A DNA stretch of 64,000 nucleotides, taken from positions 64,001-128,000 of IMG/VR virus record IMGVR_UViG_3300021963_000025; one strand, given 5' to 3'. The notes beneath the pieces were generated by a model. That model made no database searches. It was not told where the DNA came from and was given only the letters and a program-made list of their open reading frames with translations. Made by a program: the position numbers and the translations under genes. Positions 31,547-62,660 of the stretch are shown here, in pieces. Source of the stretch: a virus. Lineage: Duplodnaviria > Heunggongvirae > Uroviricota > Caudoviricetes. The first letter of the stretch is position 1. Each line of letters starts with the position of its first letter.

Positions 31547-33517
31547 ATGACCAAGAAGACAAATACTCCTTTCATTGACCAATTCGGAGAGGACTTAACC
31601 AAACTAGCGATGGATGGGAAACTTGACCCTATCATCGGAAGAGAAAAGGAAGTATATAGAATATGCCAAATCCTTTCTCGTAGAAAGAAAAACAACCCAA
31701 TTATTTTAGGGGATCCTGGTGTTGGTAAAACTGCACTAGTTGAGGCAATTGCCCAAAGAATTGTCGAAAAGAAAGTTGCAATGACTCTTCTTAATAAACG
31801 AATAATCGCCCTGAATATTGCAAACGTGGTAGCAGGTACAAAATACCGCGGAGAATTCGAAGAGCGAATGAAAAACATCGTCGATGAACTTAAAGAAAAC
31901 CCAGACGTTATTGTGTTTATTGATGAGATTCACACGATTGTAGGAGCTGGTGGTGTAAGTGGTTCATTAGACGCTAGTAACATCTTAAAGCCAGCATTGG
32001 CAAGAGGACAAGTACAATGTATTGGTGCCACAACAATCGATGAGTACCGTGAAAATATTGAAACAGATGGGGCTCTTACCCGAAGATTCCAAGAAATCTT
32101 TATAGACCCACCATCTCTTGATGATGCAATTGAAATCCTGGATAGAATCAAACCGAACTACGAAGACTTCCATTCAGTATCATATACACCTGAAGCAATC
32201 AAAGCATGCGTAATGCTATCTGACCGATACATCACTCAACGAGAATTACCGGATAAAGCAATTGACATTATGGACGAGGCAGGTGCAAAAGTCCACCTTA
32301 AAGAGGTTAAAATTCCGGAAATCATTAAAAAACTTGAAATCGAGGCTGACACTTTAAAATCTCAAAAATTGAAAGCTGCCGACGCGACTGATTATGAAAA
32401 AGCCGGTAAATTCAGAGACCTTGAAATTAGCAAACGAGAAGATATAACAAAAAGAACCAAAGAATGGGAGGAGACGCTTAGACTAAATAAGAAAGCAGTA
32501 ACTTATGAAGATATTGCTGAAGTAATTTCAGAATCTACTGGAATTCCGGTAACAAGAATGACCGACGATGAAAGTAGAATTGTTATCGACATGGAAAACG
32601 AATTAAAATCTATGATTATTGGACAAGATACTGCGGTTGAAGGTCTATGTAGAGTTATTAAAAGAAGTCGAACTGGTGTAAGTTCATCTAAAAAACCTAT
32701 CGGTTCATTTATGTTTATTGGACCTACTGGAGTTGGTAAAACTGAAACTGTTAAAGCACTTTCCGAATATTACTTCGGAAGCGAGGATTCTCTAATTAGA
32801 ATCGACATGTCAGAATACCAAGAAAAGTTTAATGTAAGTAGACTTATTGGTTCTCCTCCGGGATATGAAGGACATGAGGATGGTGGACAGTTAACCGAAC
32901 AAGTTAGACGTAAACCATATTCTGTAGTTCTATTTGATGAGGTTGAAAAAGCCCACCCAGATATTTTCAACATATTGTTACAAGTTTTAGACGAGGGTCG
33001 TTTAACCGATACTCTTGGTAGAACTATTGACTTTACGAATACTATCATTATTATGACTAGTAACGTTGGAGCAAAACGAGTTGCAGAATTCGGAGCTGGA
33101 ATTGGATTCTCAAGTTCAAGTTCTACTGCTACCCATAAAATGCAAATGGAAACAGTTATTCGAAAAGAACTTAAAAACAAATTCGCACCGGAATTCTTAA
33201 ATAGACTTGACGAAATTGTATTGTTCGACGGACTAAAACAAGAAGATGTTGCTAAAATCGCCGAAATCGAAATCGAAAAGGTAATTGAGAGAATGGCTGA
33301 GCAGGATTATGTTATTAAAGTTGCAAAAACTGCGATAGTATTTTTGGCAGAGCGTGGATATGATGCCCAATATGGAGCTAGACCTCTTAAAAGAGCAATT
33401 CAAACATACGTCGAAGACTTATTAGCGGATTGTATATTATCTAAAGAGGTAGTTAAAGGAAGTAAAGCCTACACAATATCGCATAAAAAAGGAGATGAGA
33501 AACTTTCTGTTAAATAA
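31547..33517 (+). CDS. clpC: ClpC-like Hsp100 AAA+ ATPase lacking the N-terminal domain
   Basis: GDPGVGKT/IDEIH, GPTGVGKT/LFDEVEK, UVR-type M-domain DYEKAGKFRD, IGF loop GAGIGF. Confidence 0.9.
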   Translation: MTKKTNTPFIDQFGEDLTKLAMDGKLDPIIGREKEVYRICQILSRRKKNNPIILGDPGVGKTALVEAIAQRIVEKKVAMTLLNKRIIALNIANVVAGTKYRGEFEERMKNIVDELKENPDVIVFIDEIHTIVGAGGVSGSLDASNILKPALARGQVQCIGATTIDEYRENIETDGALTRRFQEIFIDPPSLDDAIEILDRIKPNYEDFHSVSYTPEAIKACVMLSDRYITQRELPDKAIDIMDEAGAKVHLKEVKIPEIIKKLEIEADTLKSQKLKAADATDYEKAGKFRDLEISKREDITKRTKEWEETLRLNKKAVTYEDIAEVISESTGIPVTRMTDDESRIVIDMENELKSMIIGQDTAVEGLCRVIKRSRTGVSSSKKPIGSFMFIGPTGVGKTETVKALSEYYFGSEDSLIRIDMSEYQEKFNVSRLIGSPPGYEGHEDGGQLTEQVRRKPYSVVLFDEVEKAHPDIFNILLQVLDEGRLTDTLGRTIDFTNTIIIMTSNVGAKRVAEFGAGIGFSSSSSTATHKMQMETVIRKELKNKFAPEFLNRLDEIVLFDGLKQEDVAKIAEIEIEKVIERMAEQDYVIKVAKTAIVFLAERGYDAQYGARPLKRAIQTYVEDLLADCILSKEVVKGSKAYTISHKKGDEKLSVK

Positions 33518-33543: not shown

Positions 33544-34398
33544 ATGAAAACATTCTCACACCAATTCAAACATATCATTTCAGATATAAAAATTCACGGA
33601 GAGGTCTCTAAGCCAAGAGACCTCGAAGTTACCGAATTACTTTATGCCGGTTATCAAATTAATCCTAAAGAACCATTTGCTAATTTTAATAGCAGAGAGT
33701 TTAATTGGAAGTATTTTGCCGGTGAATTAGCATGGTACCTTAATAAAGATACCAACATTGATTACATTAATAATTTTTCTGGATTCTGGAAAAACATAAC
33801 AAATCCTGGAACAAACGAAATTAATTCAAATTACGGTTCTCTTCTTTTCGGAGAACAATTACAATGGGTAGTCGATTCTCTTAAAAAAGACAAGAACACT
33901 CGCCAAGCAATTGCTTTCTTAAATCAGCCAAAATATCAGTTTGAAGGTAACAAAGATTTTGTATGTACTATGTACCTAAACTTTTCAATCAGAAACAACA
34001 AGCTAGATATGAAAGTTCAAATGCGTTCTAATGATATATTTTATGGGCTTACATTCGATGCACCATTCTTTGCATTTGTCCATCAACATGTTTATCTTTG
34101 GTTAAAATCAACCTATCCTGAATTAGAACTTGGAGTATACCACCACTGGGCAGATAACATTCATTTTTACGAGAGACATTTTGAACTAGCCGAAAAAATT
34201 GTTAATGAGCCTCTCCATGAAAAACAATATTCAATGGAGTTAATTGAACCACTTTTCAATATTGAAAATGGAATAATGCATTTGACTTCTCACGGAATTT
34301 CGATGATAAATAATATAAACGATACGATAGATAACGTCTTGACTAAAGAAACATATATTAACATATTATCAGAATATCTTAATATAAGAGAACTATGA
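33544..34398 (+). CDS. Thymidylate synthase-fold enzyme, T4 gp42 dCMP hydroxymethylase-like
   Basis: EINSNYG, DFVCT, MRSNDIFYGLTFD (Asp where ThyA has Asn). Confidence 0.8.
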   Translation: MKTFSHQFKHIISDIKIHGEVSKPRDLEVTELLYAGYQINPKEPFANFNSREFNWKYFAGELAWYLNKDTNIDYINNFSGFWKNITNPGTNEINSNYGSLLFGEQLQWVVDSLKKDKNTRQAIAFLNQPKYQFEGNKDFVCTMYLNFSIRNNKLDMKVQMRSNDIFYGLTFDAPFFAFVHQHVYLWLKSTYPELELGVYHHWADNIHFYERHFELAEKIVNEPLHEKQYSMELIEPLFNIENGIMHLTSHGISMINNINDTIDNVLTKETYINILSEYLNIREL

Positions 34399-34700
34399 TT
34401 GAGTGCATGAAAACCAAACTAAATATTCCAGAATTCTATATAAATGGTAAGAATTTCGATTCGATTACGAACGATTGCGAATTCCATAATAGAATTGTCG
34501 ATTTTATCGAGATGAATATTGAAAACGAAACTGAAGATACTTTGCTTTGTTATTTTGTCCATGAAAACGGAGCTATACAATACGCAGATCTTCCAAAAAG
34601 CTCATATAAGCAATCAATACTAAAAAGCCTGGAATTCTATACATTCCATGAAAAGTACGAGAGATGCGCTCAAATTAAAAACCTATTAAAGAAATTATAA
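34395..34700 (+). CDS. Small protein with a C-terminal UVR-like motif
   Basis: Ends FHEKYERCAQIKNLLKKL. Confidence 0.65.
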   Translation: MIECMKTKLNIPEFYINGKNFDSITNDCEFHNRIVDFIEMNIENETEDTLLCYFVHENGAIQYADLPKSSYKQSILKSLEFYTFHEKYERCAQIKNLLKKL

Positions 34701-35386
34701 TGAATCACGGAAAAGAATTCGAAAGATACGCAATGCTAGACAAGGGTGTAAGTTCAATGAACATGCACTACTATAAAAAACAAATCGAAAATTCAATGAC
34801 TCCATATATCTTGGAAGAGAGAGAAATGAGAGCAACTCAATTGGACATTTTTTCGAGATTAATGATGGATAGATTATTGTGGGTTGCAGGACCTGTGAAT
34901 GACAATATGTCAACTATAGTTCAAGCTCAATTAATGTTTTTAGATAGTACTGATGACCGAGATATAACGATGCATATTGACAGTCCTGGAGGTTCAGTAA
35001 AATCTGGACTTTCTATGGTCGATGTTATGGAATGGATTAAATCCGATATCAGAACTGTAAACACTGGTATGGCTGCTTCGATGGGTTCAGTACTACTAGG
35101 AGCTGGAACCAAAGGTAAAAGAAGTTCACTAAGACATTCAACAACGATGTTACACCAATCTTCAGGAGGATTCAGTGGAAATATACAAGACGCTGAAATC
35201 GACTGGGCAGAATGGCAAAAAGTTAACAAAGAACTATTTAATTTATTAGGAGCATATTGTGATAAAAAACCAGAACAGGTTATGAAAGATGCGACTAGAG
35301 ATTTATGGTTAAACGCCGAAGAAGCGCTTAGCTATGGTATAATCGACGAGATTATTAATCCTGGTAAATTAAAATCTAAAAAATAG
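34700..35386 (+). CDS. clpP: ATP-dependent Clp protease proteolytic subunit
   Basis: DIFSRLMMDR, IDSPGGSV, GMAASMG, MLHQ; Bacteroidota-style N-terminus. Confidence 0.95.
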   Translation: MNHGKEFERYAMLDKGVSSMNMHYYKKQIENSMTPYILEEREMRATQLDIFSRLMMDRLLWVAGPVNDNMSTIVQAQLMFLDSTDDRDITMHIDSPGGSVKSGLSMVDVMEWIKSDIRTVNTGMAASMGSVLLGAGTKGKRSSLRHSTTMLHQSSGGFSGNIQDAEIDWAEWQKVNKELFNLLGAYCDKKPEQVMKDATRDLWLNAEEALSYGIIDEIINPGKLKSKK

Positions 35387-36693: not shown

Positions 36694-38532
36694 ATGAAAA
36701 TTAGTATAATAACGCGATGTACTCGTACTCAAAATTTGGAGATTATTAAAGAATCTATTTTTAATAACGTTCCAAATGGATTCAACCTGACATGGCACAT
36801 TTTATTCGACACTGCCGTCCTTAAGGACATCGATGCAGAACTATTAAGTCGACTTAACACTGATAATATAGTACTCCATTTTAAAAAGGGAGATGAATGG
36901 GGAAATTGGAATCGATTAAATGATTTAATCCAACAAATTTCTGGATGGATTTATAATTTAGATGATGACAACATCCTTCATGAAGATTTCTATCAAAAAG
37001 TTTCTGAAACAATAGCCAATAATCCAAAATGCTTGGGTTTAATATTCTCACAAAAGGTTGGAGGAATCGATTTTTCAGGAGTTGATGTTAGAGAAGCAGA
37101 CCCAAAAAATACAGTTGTCCAAAAAATTGATTTGGCGCAATGGTTAATACATTCAGAACTTCACTTAAATAATCTATATGGCAGCGGTTACCGAGCAGAC
37201 GGTGAATTTATAGAATCTCTGTATAAAGAGAATCCGGATTCTTTCGTTTTTATCAAAGACATATTATGTTATTATAATGCATTAGAAAAGAAGTCAACCG
37301 CAAAAGTTCCAAAAATTCTTTATGTTGGAACTGATAAGCCAGAACTTAAGTCTTTAAAAATATTAGACTATGAGGCAGACAATCTTGAAGTACTTCATTT
37401 AGAATCTGATGAGAATATTGGAGAACATTTGGCATCATTTAAACCAGATTGTATAATTACAAGAGAGGAACATTGGAACAGATTTAAAAACATGGCGTCA
37501 ATGCCACTCCAGTTTCGTAGAAAATGGATTAATCTTTCTGAAAATGAGTCAATTGAACATGTCGGGCAAATAGCATACCAATGTTCTATGGAGAGTATGT
37601 TGAACCCAGATGGATTGGAAGACAGCTCAATGATTTCATATTTTACCCCAATATATAATACTGGAGATAAACTATTCAATACCTACCAATCCTTGGTGAA
37701 TCAAACGTACAGCAATTGGGAATGGGTAATTGTAAATGATTCGACGGATGGAGGTAAAACATTAAAAATAGCAGAATCTATCGCGGCAAAAGACCCGAGA
37801 GTACGCCTTTACGATTTTAGAGAAAAGAGTGGTGGTAATATTGGTGAGGTTAAATGGAGATGTTGTGCACTTGCTAGAGGGTTTATTTTAGCAGAATTAG
37901 ACCATGACGATTTATTAGTTCCATGGTGTACCGAAGACCTTTATAAAGCGGCTAAAAAACATCCAGAAGCTGGATTCTTTTTTAACGATACGGTTGAAGT
38001 TGACGAGAACTGGAATTCTTTAACATATCCTGATGGATTTGCTCTTGGATATGGTTCATACCGAAAGGAAGAGTATGCTGGAAAGATGATGGATGTTTCT
38101 AATCAGCAAAATATTAATCCTAAAACAATTAGACATATAGTTGGAGTTCCAAATCATGTAAGAGCTTGGAGACGTTCTACCTATTTTGAAATTGGAGGAC
38201 ATAATAGAAGTCTTACAATAGCCGATGATTACGAATTGGTTGTAAGAACCTTCTTAAAAACAATAACATGTAAAATACCAAAACTAGGATACGTTCAATT
38301 CTTGTACAATAATGCAAATGGACAAAATACTCACAATTTATCCAGAGCAGATATTCAAAGAAGAGTTCGAACAATAGGTTACTACTATAACGAGCAAATT
38401 AAAAAACGTTTCGAAGAGTTAGGATTAAAAGATTGGGCTTATGATGAAAATCCAGGAGCACCGTTAAATACTGTTTCAAGATATGGCCAAGAAGAGATGG
38501 CCGCAAATATAATATACAACGAATATGACTGA
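36694..38532 (+). CDS. Glycosyltransferase with two GT2 (GT-A) domains
   Basis: ISIITRCTR..YNLDDDN; FTPIYNT..WEWVIVNDSTD..AELDHDD..ADDYEL. Confidence 0.85.
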   Translation: MKISIITRCTRTQNLEIIKESIFNNVPNGFNLTWHILFDTAVLKDIDAELLSRLNTDNIVLHFKKGDEWGNWNRLNDLIQQISGWIYNLDDDNILHEDFYQKVSETIANNPKCLGLIFSQKVGGIDFSGVDVREADPKNTVVQKIDLAQWLIHSELHLNNLYGSGYRADGEFIESLYKENPDSFVFIKDILCYYNALEKKSTAKVPKILYVGTDKPELKSLKILDYEADNLEVLHLESDENIGEHLASFKPDCIITREEHWNRFKNMASMPLQFRRKWINLSENESIEHVGQIAYQCSMESMLNPDGLEDSSMISYFTPIYNTGDKLFNTYQSLVNQTYSNWEWVIVNDSTDGGKTLKIAESIAAKDPRVRLYDFREKSGGNIGEVKWRCCALARGFILAELDHDDLLVPWCTEDLYKAAKKHPEAGFFFNDTVEVDENWNSLTYPDGFALGYGSYRKEEYAGKMMDVSNQQNINPKTIRHIVGVPNHVRAWRRSTYFEIGGHNRSLTIADDYELVVRTFLKTITCKIPKLGYVQFLYNNANGQNTHNLSRADIQRRVRTIGYYYNEQIKKRFEELGLKDWAYDENPGAPLNTVSRYGQEEMAANIIYNEYD

Positions 38533-47513: not shown

Positions 47514-48029
47514 ATGCCTCGAATAGACATAGAAAAAATATACATGCAAGTAGCATATCAATTTGCAAAACTTAGTTACGCCGAACGCCGAAAGGTAGGT
47601 TGTGTTATTGTTAAAGACAAACAAGTAATTTCGTTTGGATATAATGGTACACCGCATGGTTTCGAAAATGAATGCGAGAGTATCGAAACAACTGGATGGG
47701 ATTTTCCAGAGCATGCAGAACTTTTAGAGGAAAATGGATGGACACTTTCAACCGATAATTTATGTTGCGCACATCGAAGTGTTACTAAAAGAGAAGTACT
47801 TCATGCAGAATCTAATGCAATTATGAAGGTCGCAAAATCGACTATGAGCTGCGAAGGTGCCGATTTATATACTACAACATGCCCTTGTTTTGATTGCGCA
47901 AAATTAATCATACAAGCCGGAATAAAAAAGGTATACTACACGGAAGATTATAGAGACATGAGTGGAGTTGAACTACTTGAAAGGGCAGGGATTGAAGTTG
48001 AACAAGTAATAGTTTGGAATGAGTATTAA
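47514..48029 (+). CDS. cd: dCMP deaminase
   Basis: KVG.VIV..GYNG.P, HAESNAI, PCFDCAKLIIQAGI. Confidence 0.95.
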   Translation: MPRIDIEKIYMQVAYQFAKLSYAERRKVGCVIVKDKQVISFGYNGTPHGFENECESIETTGWDFPEHAELLEENGWTLSTDNLCCAHRSVTKREVLHAESNAIMKVAKSTMSCEGADLYTTTCPCFDCAKLIIQAGIKKVYYTEDYRDMSGVELLERAGIEVEQVIVWNEY

Positions 48030-61367: not shown

Positions 61368-62660
61368 ATGAACAATCTAAATGAATCTAATATTTTGCAA
61401 AATGCTCTGATAGGCGTTGAATTTGAATTTTATTCAAATTTTAGTGCTGAAGAAACTGCAAAAAAACTTGAAAAATTACTTGGCAAAAAGATTCATGTCG
61501 AGGACAAAGCACATAGTGATTTTGAAGTAACTCGCGACGAATTTAAAATAGAACCTGACATGTCAGGTGGTGCCAAACTTCTTGAATTGGTTACTGGAGC
61601 CCTTCCATATACTGCGGCTCGTTTAATGATAATTAATGTTTGTCAATGGATTCAAGAGAATGGATATACAAATGACAGGTCTTCGATTCACTTAAACCTT
61701 TCGTTTGATAAATCAAAAATTGAAAACAAATATCGTATCTCTAAAATGAACGTTCTTAAATTCATTTTAGATTTTAATGAAGAGCAAGTCTTCAAATTCT
61801 TTCCTAAAAGAGAAAACTCAGCCTACGCAAAATCTATCAAATTTGTCCTACCAAAAGAGGACACTTACTTCTTTGATGGAAAACATATCAATCAACAGAA
61901 TTTTATTTACCCAGATACAAAATATTACGGGATAAATTTCGATAAAAGACACAAAAACTATCTTGAATTCCGATACATTGGTGGAGCAGACTGGGAAAAG
62001 AAAACAACTACAATTCTTTATTTAGTTGACCGTTTCCTACTACAATTATGGAAATCAACCGAAAATACAAACTTCACGGAATTAAATGCAATTGAATTAA
62101 AAAAGATAGTTGCAGAAAATCAAAGAATAATCGACGCTAGAAAGGACTGGAAGACAATTAAAGATAATTGGAAAAATGTCAAGTTCACTGTCGATATGAA
62201 TGATGACCCTAAAGTAGTTGACCTTTACTGGAATGCTGTTAAAGAAAGAGTGATAAGACTATTTACACATGGAGACCTTAGCAAAGGACATATTAATTAC
62301 GATTCTGATGCGGGTAGGGTTCAAGTAAATGGTGGTCGTTTAGAATATTGTGTTGACCTTAGAGGATATGAATTTGTAAGTTGCTTCCTAAGAGGAGAAT
62401 TTACAGAATGTGATATTTATGGATGTGACATTAATGGTTCTGATATTCACTATTGTAATTTCTATCAATCAACGCAAATTACAAGTTCCAAAGTAGATGG
62501 TTCATATATTCACGGTACATGTACCGCAAATGATTGTTACATTTATGGTAAAGGAACGTTTAAAGGAACAATGAATGGCGGAATCTTTAGAGAGGGTTCA
62601 TTTGATAAAAAACTAGCTAGATTTAATGACGTTGAAATTGTTAAATCTAGAGGAATATAA
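61368..62660 (+). CDS. Putative amidoligase (COOH-NH2 ligase type 2) with a C-terminal beta-helix
   Basis: GVEFEF, IEPD, ELVTG, SSIHLNLS, KYYGIN, LEFRYIGG; pentapeptide-like tail. Confidence 0.7.
   Translation: MNNLNESNILQNALIGVEFEFYSNFSAEETAKKLEKLLGKKIHVEDKAHSDFEVTRDEFKIEPDMSGGAKLLELVTGALPYTAARLMIINVCQWIQENGYTNDRSSIHLNLSFDKSKIENKYRISKMNVLKFILDFNEEQVFKFFPKRENSAYAKSIKFVLPKEDTYFFDGKHINQQNFIYPDTKYYGINFDKRHKNYLEFRYIGGADWEKKTTTILYLVDRFLLQLWKSTENTNFTELNAIELKKIVAENQRIIDARKDWKTIKDNWKNVKFTVDMNDDPKVVDLYWNAVKERVIRLFTHGDLSKGHINYDSDAGRVQVNGGRLEYCVDLRGYEFVSCFLRGEFTECDIYGCDINGSDIHYCNFYQSTQITSSKVDGSYIHGTCTANDCYIYGKGTFKGTMNGGIFREGSFDKKLARFNDVEIVKSRGI

Follow-up and report, generated by a model that had tools for sequence, protein, structure and literature searches.

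A gp42-type dCMP hydroxymethylase candidate and its partner genes point to cytosine modification in a large aquatic phage

In enzymes of the thymidylate synthase (TS) fold, the active-site residues that accompany base choice and product have been described in some detail (positions as in Escherichia coli ThyA). Replacement of Asn177 by Asp turns the pocket from uracil to cytosine (PMC8670742; PMC13326640), replacement of Leu143 by Asp or Glu accompanies hydration of the methylene intermediate, with a hydroxymethyl instead of a methyl product (PMC13326640), and replacement of Asp169 by Asn is the hallmark of the flavin- and O2-dependent synthases of 5-hydroxy-deoxycytidine monophosphate (5-hydroxy-dCMP; PMC13326640). 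The preference of MilA for cytidine monophosphate (CMP) comes from Ala and Lys where Ser167 and Arg126 stand (PMC5175136), and TS positions 177 and 147 mark contigs with modified DNA (PMC8670742). Here we analyzed a 64,000-nucleotide stretch of DNA from an uncultured phage (the window), which covers bases 64001-128000 of the 199,669-bp linear IMG/VR contig IMGVR_UViG_3300021963_000025 (G000; 74% complete by CheckV), and within it the TS-fold gene at 33544-34398. We consider it likely that this gene encodes a folate-dependent dCMP hydroxymethylase of the T4 gp42 type within a T4-like supply route. Because it has the active-site signature of the T4 5-hydroxymethyl-dCMP enzyme, the phage probably replaces cytosine in its DNA.

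The open reading frame (ORF) begins with ATG, contains no internal stop and fills exactly this span on the plus strand. Its product carries TNEINSNYG at residues 90-98 (EINSNYG at 91-97), KDFVCT at 137-142 (DFVCT at 138-142) and MRSNDIFYGLTFD at 160-172, and a Pro-Cys-His motif is found nowhere in it, all of which agrees with the original prediction. The specificity Asp of that prediction is present as well, but it is residue 172, the D that ends MRSNDIFYGLTFD and occupies the column of T4 Asp179 and E. coli Asn177; the D of RSND corresponds to Asp169 instead. The protein scored 72 bits against Pfam PF00303 (Thymidylat_synt; cut-off 24.3), and its top match among PDB sequences was T4 dCMP hydroxymethylase (1b49, E 5e-15), followed by MilA (E 5e-14) and the first ThyA (E 7e-12). 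At a threshold of E < 1e-30, an exhaustive HMMER search of 1.8 billion representatives returned 182 clusters; the number rose to 2,324 with E < 1e-10.

For residue-level comparison, the query was aligned with E. coli ThyA, the phage's own ThyA, T4 gp42, RB69 gp48 (a proven 5-hydroxy-dCMP synthase), the deoxyuridine monophosphate (dUMP) hydroxymethylases SPO1-like and M6 gp58, and several phage homologues. Cys141, Asp138, Thr142, Asp164 and Asp172 of the query correspond to C146, L143, H147, D169 and N177 of E. coli ThyA, and Ser162, Arg120, Glu61 and Tyr97 to S167, R126, E58 and Y94. Numbered as in E. coli ThyA, the query has Glu58, Trp80, Tyr94, Arg126, Asp143, Cys146, Thr147, Met165, Arg166, Ser167, Asn168, Asp169, Gly173, Asp177, His207 and Tyr209, and T4 gp42 has the same residue at every one of these positions (58, 80, 94, 126, 143, 146, 147, 165-169, 173, 177, 207 and 209). 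The T4 D179N mutant (PDB 6l18) differs from the wild type in the column of the query's Asp172, which fixes the alignment of the specificity position independently. Cys141, Glu61 and Tyr97 are invariant in 70 homologues; in an alignment of the query with the 150 representative clusters nearest to it (151 sequences), the combination D143/C146/T147/D169/D177 occurs in 139 and Asp177 in 149. Because these residues match the published meanings of their positions, the query scores as a predicted cytosine-specific, hydroxymethyl-forming and deoxyribo-type enzyme that is not of the 5-hydroxy kind.

Position 143 bears on the possibility of a dCMP methyltransferase of the Xanthomonas phage XP12 type, in which a hydride from tetrahydrofolate would yield 5-methyl-dCMP and DNA with 5-methylcytosine (5mC). 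We regard this as improbable, even though a single change to Asp at 177 is enough for ThyA to methylate dCMP (mutant studies cited in PMC8670742) and hydration is not certain to be distinguishable from reduction by sequence. The class combines Asp177 with a water-excluding hydrophobic residue at 143, and the query, which is set apart from it by this published rule only, has no bulky hydrophobic residue there but Asp, as do gp42, MilA and both dUMP hydroxymethylases. A hydroxymethyl product was further supported by gene linkage in homologues. Xanthomonas phage Xp15 and an Acinetobacter phage (MD-2021a) have enzymes that are 34-38% identical to the query and share the D-C-T-D-D signature, and each of these enzymes lies between a NodU-type carbamoyltransferase and a deaminase. 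A NodU-type carbamoyltransferase in such an arrangement acts on 5-hydroxymethylcytosine (5hmC), not on 5mC (PMC8670742), and thus needs the hydroxymethyl group. The methyltransferase reading is also opposed by a cassette partner, described below, that resembles transferases acting at the C5 hydroxymethyl-derived carbon. Of the two bases originally proposed, 5hmC is therefore favored, and 5mC is disfavored by the Asp at 143.

In a maximum-likelihood tree of 68 sequences, the query belonged to a clade of 17 members (99/99) within a larger one of 38 (97/91), to which T4 gp42 also belongs, so that the query groups with gp42 rather than with ThyA or the SPO1 dUMP hydroxymethylase in the phylogeny that had been proposed as a check. 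T4 gp42 forms a long branch, and we claim its inclusion in the clade while its exact place is unsure. The sister group consists of the Xp15 and Acinetobacter phage enzymes, and ThyA, RB69 gp48 and the SPO1 dUMP hydroxymethylase fall outside the gp42-containing clade. The position of RB69 gp48 argues against a flavin- and O2-dependent 5-hydroxy-dCMP synthase such as RB69 gp48 or DLP3 gp80, which would feed O-glycosylated 5-hydroxycytosine; so does its phmmer match to the query (E 7e-5, vs 3e-17 for gp42). Such a synthase would share the fold, Asp177 and the acid at 143, and glycosyltransferases are present in the genome. However, the class is defined by Asn in place of Asp169, and the query keeps Asp (Asp164); moreover, Trp80, Asn168, Gly173 and Tyr209 are as in gp42, whereas the corresponding residues of RB69 gp48 are Ala, Gln, Val and Phe. 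We judge this alternative to be very unlikely.

The AlphaFold model of the 284-aa protein, built with 70 homologues, had a mean pLDDT (predicted local distance difference test) of 97.3, and its top Foldseek matches were MilA and T4 dCMP hydroxymethylase (E 3e-20 to 1e-17, template modeling score 0.65-0.80). Beyond the TS core, a C-terminal extension of about 58 residues (226-284), which T4 gp42 lacks, is confidently folded into three short strands, two helices and a last strand. With MilA as the top structural and a near-top sequence match, and with the 5hmC carbamoyltransferase accepting RNA substrates too (PMC8670742), a MilA-like CMP hydroxymethylase serving an RNA or small-molecule pathway and not DNA has to be weighed. 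The query differs from that class, defined by Ala for Ser167 and Lys for Arg126, at both positions: in place of MilA Ala176 and Lys133 it has Ser162 and Arg120, as in the T4 enzyme and ThyA. Moreover, the genome has genes for a dCTPase and for a dCMP deaminase, and family tallies of its ORFs of 90-520 aa showed no MilB-like N-glycosidase. These features leave the CMP reading with very little probability.

The gene is shared by 30 related viral contigs (54-97% identity), among them records of 234-256 kb, one of which (G002, 256,444 bp) is closed by terminal repeats. The initial label of a jumbo phage is therefore plausible. The nearest DNA polymerases are those of Prevotella Lak phages and of LR756500 and related uncultured huge phages, and the stretch recurs in estuarine and many lake and freshwater metagenomes; 10 kb taken from the window had no megablast match among cultured phages.

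Three enzymes of nucleotide supply accompany the hydroxymethylase gene (Table 1). A canonical ThyA is encoded elsewhere in the genome, in which ThyX (PF02511) was not found, thereby answering the question of a separate thymidylate synthase. Its presence also bears on the reading of our gene as a redundant or degenerate second thymidylate synthase, or as a dUMP hydroxymethylase, without effect on cytosine. PHROGs and public annotations do label the family "thymidylate synthase". Against this, the query has Asp for Asn177, Thr for His147 and Met for Gln165, both dUMP hydroxymethylases keep Asn177, and the catalytic residues are invariant across the clade; with a canonical ThyA already in the genome, we give a second synthase scarcely any weight. 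In class terms, canonical ThyA is marked by Asn177, Leu143, Pro-Cys-His and Gln165, where the query has Asp, Asp, Val-Cys-Thr and Met, and the dUMP hydroxymethylases SPO1-like and M6 gp58 by Asn177, Asn147 and Asn165, where it has Asp, Thr and Met. Collectively, the sequence tests favor the gp42 type over five other TS-fold classes, in support of the dCMP hydroxymethylase first proposed.

The second enzyme is a dCMP deaminase (Pfam PF00383, E 2e-24; phrog_174, E 5e-56), which we read from its sequence as the T4 cd-like partner that would balance the dCMP and dUMP pools. The third is a homologue of the T4 gp56 dCTPase/dUTPase, the dCTPase that the original prediction had proposed to look for; its PHROG is annotated "NTP pyrophosphohydrolase", and it is kept alongside the TS gene in four of five relatives at 83-99% identity, including the complete G002. 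Next to it, the B-family DNA polymerase appears split (G000 178367-182423): a 465-aa piece carries the exonuclease domain together with the beginning of the polymerase domain, the genes of the small and large ribonucleotide reductase subunits come after it, and Pfam reported a second polymerase piece elsewhere among the late ORFs.

Several observations weigh against the gp42-type reading and the supply route. The deoxynucleoside monophosphate (dNMP) kinase that T4-like supply calls for was found on this contig neither by phmmer in its 272 ORFs nor by a scan for N-terminal P-loops. T4 gp1 and RB69 and Chryseobacterium-phage thymidylate kinases matched none of the 272 ORFs by phmmer, PF02223 and PF13238 scans gave matches below threshold only, and the complete relative G002 has no T4 gp1-like or thymidylate kinase. 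The two longest relatives do encode a guanylate-kinase-like P-loop candidate, and alignment of one of them (G001) with the contig puts this gene by synteny about 4.4 kb past the contig's left end, so that the kinase proposed in the original prediction has a candidate in relatives and none on the contig itself. This candidate is sub-threshold in Pfam (22-25 bits) and is named for its guanylate-kinase-like motif. Searches by phmmer, whose queries included T4 beta-glucosyltransferase and the Xp15 carbamoyltransferase, found neither an alpha- or beta-glucosyltransferase of the T4 type nor a carbamoyltransferase among the 272 ORFs. At the residue level, the position-143 acid rule separating hydroxymethyl from methyl products is a correlation and not a proven determinant, Arg127 is Gln in the query (likewise in SPO1), and the nearest characterized protein, T4 gp42, is about 25% identical, the subclade itself being known from sequence. 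Finally, GATC is depleted in G000 (182 observed vs 569 expected; observed/expected ratio (O/E) 0.32, z -19.5), as are CATATG (O/E 0.22) and GATATC (0.54), with most other palindromes near expectation. The depletion of GATC and CATATG suggests that the DNA is still selected by some site-specific enzymes; this avoidance neither fits nor contradicts C5 modification, and does not discriminate modified from unmodified DNA.

Directly upstream of the dCTPase gene and the split polymerase, outside the window and about 45 kb to its right, lies a cassette of genes designated g244-g249 (Table 1). For g249, the language-model neighbors were Atlas clusters carrying HMUDK_hel, ADDT (amino-acid:DNA transferase) and aGPT-Pplase3. 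Its structural model (pLDDT 91) had nothing significant in the PDB by Foldseek, and an exhaustive structural search gave the 5-phosphomethyl-dU glycinyltransferase PaMx11 gp46 (8z2m) as the best match (Z 10.2 over 223 residues), followed by queuine-salvage DUF2419 and helix-hairpin-helix DNA glycosylases. A Z of 10 for a helical protein is not decisive alone and agrees here with the profile evidence. By predicted fold and family profile, g249 thus appears to belong to the amino-acid:DNA transferase/aGPT-Pplase superfamily. Glu347 and Cys351 of g249, invariant in 53 homologues, recall the essential Cys/Glu pair of amino-acid:DNA transferases (PMC8989533), a likeness of residue type. A P-loop 5-hydroxymethylpyrimidine DNA kinase was not found on the contig (about 74% complete), with no M6 gp54-like protein by phmmer and no small P-loop kinase. 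Among the other cassette proteins, g245 gave a weak Atlas lead to GDSL lipases and has GDSHS and GNIDxRHH motifs, so that an SGNH-like hydrolase or transferase is a lead and not a finding; PDB sequence searches with g244 and g247 gave no match. The PHROG profile phrog_17781, of 795 positions, matches g245 in its first half and g249 in the other, and the two proteins are therefore fused in some phages. In the window, a 430-aa protein (61368-62660) that is kept in G002 weakly matches Amidoligase_2 at its N terminus (about 21-23 bits); contigs with thymidine hypermodification have been reported to carry amidoligase genes (PMC8989533).

Two unrelated phage lineages have homologues of the cassette genes, with E values as low as 1e-144 for g246 and g249, no more than a few kb away from a TS homologue. 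One lineage has a Pol III alpha polymerase (two contexts, the TS signature having been read in one) and the other is T4-like with gp44/45 clamp genes (two contexts). Wherever the DNA of such a context was readable (L077, L079 and L080), the adjoining TS gene has the gp42 signature, and one TS gene of the T4-like lineage reads DFMCT/MRSNDVVFGYKND. A dUTPase or PRA-PH pyrophosphatase and a C5-methylase-like gene are among the companions, and three of the four contexts also include a dCMP deaminase. A C5-methylase gene in phages that presumably replace cytosine before replication raises the question of its target; on our contig, no C5 DNA methyltransferase (PF00145) was found. We regard the linkage of the cassette to gp42-type genes as the key result: because the cassette adjoins such genes in unrelated phages too, the predicted 5hmC is probably modified further, which lends support to the earlier suggestion of a decorated base. 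A literature search for work linking inositol-phosphate synthase or aGPT-Pplase/AADT with dCMP hydroxymethylase or cytosine hypermodification found nothing relevant.

In the complete relative G002, the place beside the dCTPase gene retains a g245-like gene, and genes for a UDP-galactopyranose mutase, a GT2 glycosyltransferase and a protein resembling pyridoxal-phosphate (PLP) enzymes stand in for the rest of the cassette. This genome also has a NodU-type carbamoyltransferase (both Pfam halves E 1e-63) near ThyA and a GT25. The mutase/GT2/PLP-like set and the carbamoyltransferase are candidates for alternative ways of decorating this base in a single phage family. On our contig, a GT2-domain protein without hydrophobic segment is encoded 2.3 kb downstream of the hydroxymethylase gene and has a homologue of 50% identity in G002 (h165); as a DNA glycosyltransferase it is only a candidate.

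In the pathway that we propose, the gp56-like dCTPase would convert dCTP to dCMP and keep plain cytosine out of the DNA. Cys141 of the hydroxymethylase would attack C6 of dCMP, Asp172 would read the N3/N4 face of cytosine, and methylene-tetrahydrofolate would supply an exocyclic methylene at C5; because Asp138 occupies the place of ThyA's Leu143, water and not a hydride is expected to resolve this intermediate, giving 5-hydroxymethyl-dCMP (hm-dCMP). The dCMP deaminase and the separate canonical ThyA would supply dTMP. The guanylate-kinase-like nucleoside monophosphate kinase of close relatives may phosphorylate hm-dCMP, a host nucleoside diphosphate kinase may carry it to the triphosphate, and the phage B-family polymerase would incorporate hm-dCTP in place of C, from which we infer full replacement of cytosine. 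Lineage-specific cassettes beside the dCTPase gene would then probably alter the hydroxymethyl group on the DNA. Speculatively, g246 would make a cyclitol as the added group, from which g247 may remove the phosphate and to which g248 may add a methyl group.

A bolder proposal, which we advance tentatively and regard as doubtful in its full form, is that the phage makes an undescribed hypermodified cytosine. Here 5hmC would be rebuilt on the polymer by g244-g249, possibly into a C5-methylene cyclitol (inositol-derived and perhaps methylated), as the first cytosine-side counterpart of thymidine hypermodification, and related phages would swap the cassette for a UDP-galactofuranose/GT2 set and a carbamoyltransferase. 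If true, the region beside the dCTPase gene is a variable "modification island". The gp42-type gene itself is expected, as phage metagenomes often contain TS homologues with Asp177, which have been linked to modified DNA before. The novelty is that, in this phage as in unrelated lineages, genes of predicted gp42 type travel with an inositol-3-phosphate synthase and an apparent relative of amino-acid:DNA transferases. To our knowledge, such transferases are known only from thymidine hypermodification. The cassette thus provides a specific and testable lead to a new cytosine modification, and the swapped cassettes offer a comparative series in one phage family. More broadly, a gp42-type enzyme together with a dCTPase predicts DNA without plain cytosine in a widespread group of large aquatic phages, which would affect escape from restriction and CRISPR, virome sequencing and methylation calling, and host-range biology.

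Table 1. Positions of the candidate hydroxymethylase gene, its predicted partners and related features (window, position in the analyzed stretch; G000, position in the whole contig; other labels, related or cassette-bearing records).
Feature	Location	Strand	Description
Candidate gp42-type dCMP 5-hydroxymethylase	window 33544-34398	+	TS fold, 284 aa
ClpB/ClpC-like AAA+ ATPase	window 31547-33517	+	directly upstream; syntenic; no indicated pathway role
ClpP protease	window 34700-35386	+	downstream; syntenic; no indicated pathway role
GT2-domain protein	window 36694-38532	+	soluble, 612 aa; PF00535 E 1e-16, residues 317-442
dCMP deaminase	window 47514-48029	+	171 aa; HAE...PCxxC zinc motifs
Canonical ThyA	G000 61404-62651		283 bits; LPPCH, Leu143, Asn177, Gln165; has insertions
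T4 gp56-like dCTPase/dUTPase	G000 177900-178367		phmmer E 2e-17; 34% identity over catalytic half
Cassette g244-g249	G000 172922-177858		
g244	within G000 172922-177858		DUF6378
g245	G000 173196-174257		353 aa; no Pfam family
g246			inositol-3-phosphate synthase; 1gr0 E 4e-77; five-membered-cyclitol-phosphate synthase E 1e-40
g247			132 aa; DFDGV and FEDD motifs, HAD-like by eye
g248			FkbM methyltransferase
g249	G000 176668-177858		Pfam HMUDK_hel (PF18723), 30-32 bits vs cut-off 25
Guanylate-kinase-like P-loop protein (candidate)	G001 213107-213499; G002 248573-249046		157-159 aa; TTRxPRxGExxGxDY
Alternative decoration genes of G002 (candidates)	L065:15122-19318; L066:321-1541; L075:4458-6122		
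C5-cytosine-methyltransferase-family genes with cassette	L077 11518-12699; L079 12655-13881; L080 12897-14123		

Elsewhere in the genome, downstream of the ribonucleotide reductase genes (G000 182558-184706), a weak ATP-grasp (R2K_2) protein lies beside a protein of the alanine-dehydrogenase/PNT family.

Among described systems, T4 gp42 (PDB 1b49, 1b5d and 6a9a) shares with the query the fold and the EINSNYG, DF(V/M)CT and MRSND motifs, and its partners are matched by a gp56-like dCTPase, a dCMP deaminase and a separate ThyA. Unlike in T4, the gene does not lie beside a glucosyltransferase, a gp1-type dNMP kinase is lacking, and the enzyme belongs to a distinct, well-supported subclade of large aquatic phages. 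MilA of mildiomycin biosynthesis (PDB 5b6d and 5jnh) likewise has Asp at 143 and 177, but the query has Ser and Arg instead of Ala176 and Lys133 and stands in a phage deoxynucleotide context. RB69 gp48 and DLP3 gp80 (PMC13326640) resemble the query in the TS fold, Asp177, the acid at 143 and the presence of phage glycosyltransferases. The MetaGPA systems (PMC8670742; Xp15 and Acinetobacter MD-2021a loci) have a co-occurring dCMP deaminase and NTP pyrophosphatase, as here; unlike them, this contig has no carbamoyltransferase and a different cassette beside the dCTPase gene. The mutase/GT2 set of G002 recalls the clusters of sugar-nucleotide and transferase genes in other cytosine-hypermodifying phages. 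Thymidine hypermodification (5-HMUDK with amino-acid:DNA transferase/aGPT-Pplase; M6, ViI and PaMx11; PMC8989533) has transferases that g249 resembles. M6 gp51, gp52, gp53, gp54 and gp55 had no match in this genome or G002, and no P-loop 5-HMUDK, PLP or radical-SAM enzymes were found on this contig. Unlike in those phages, the partner synthase here is of the cytosine type and not a dUMP hydroxymethylase, and the companions of the transferase relative are an inositol-3-phosphate synthase and an FkbM methyltransferase.

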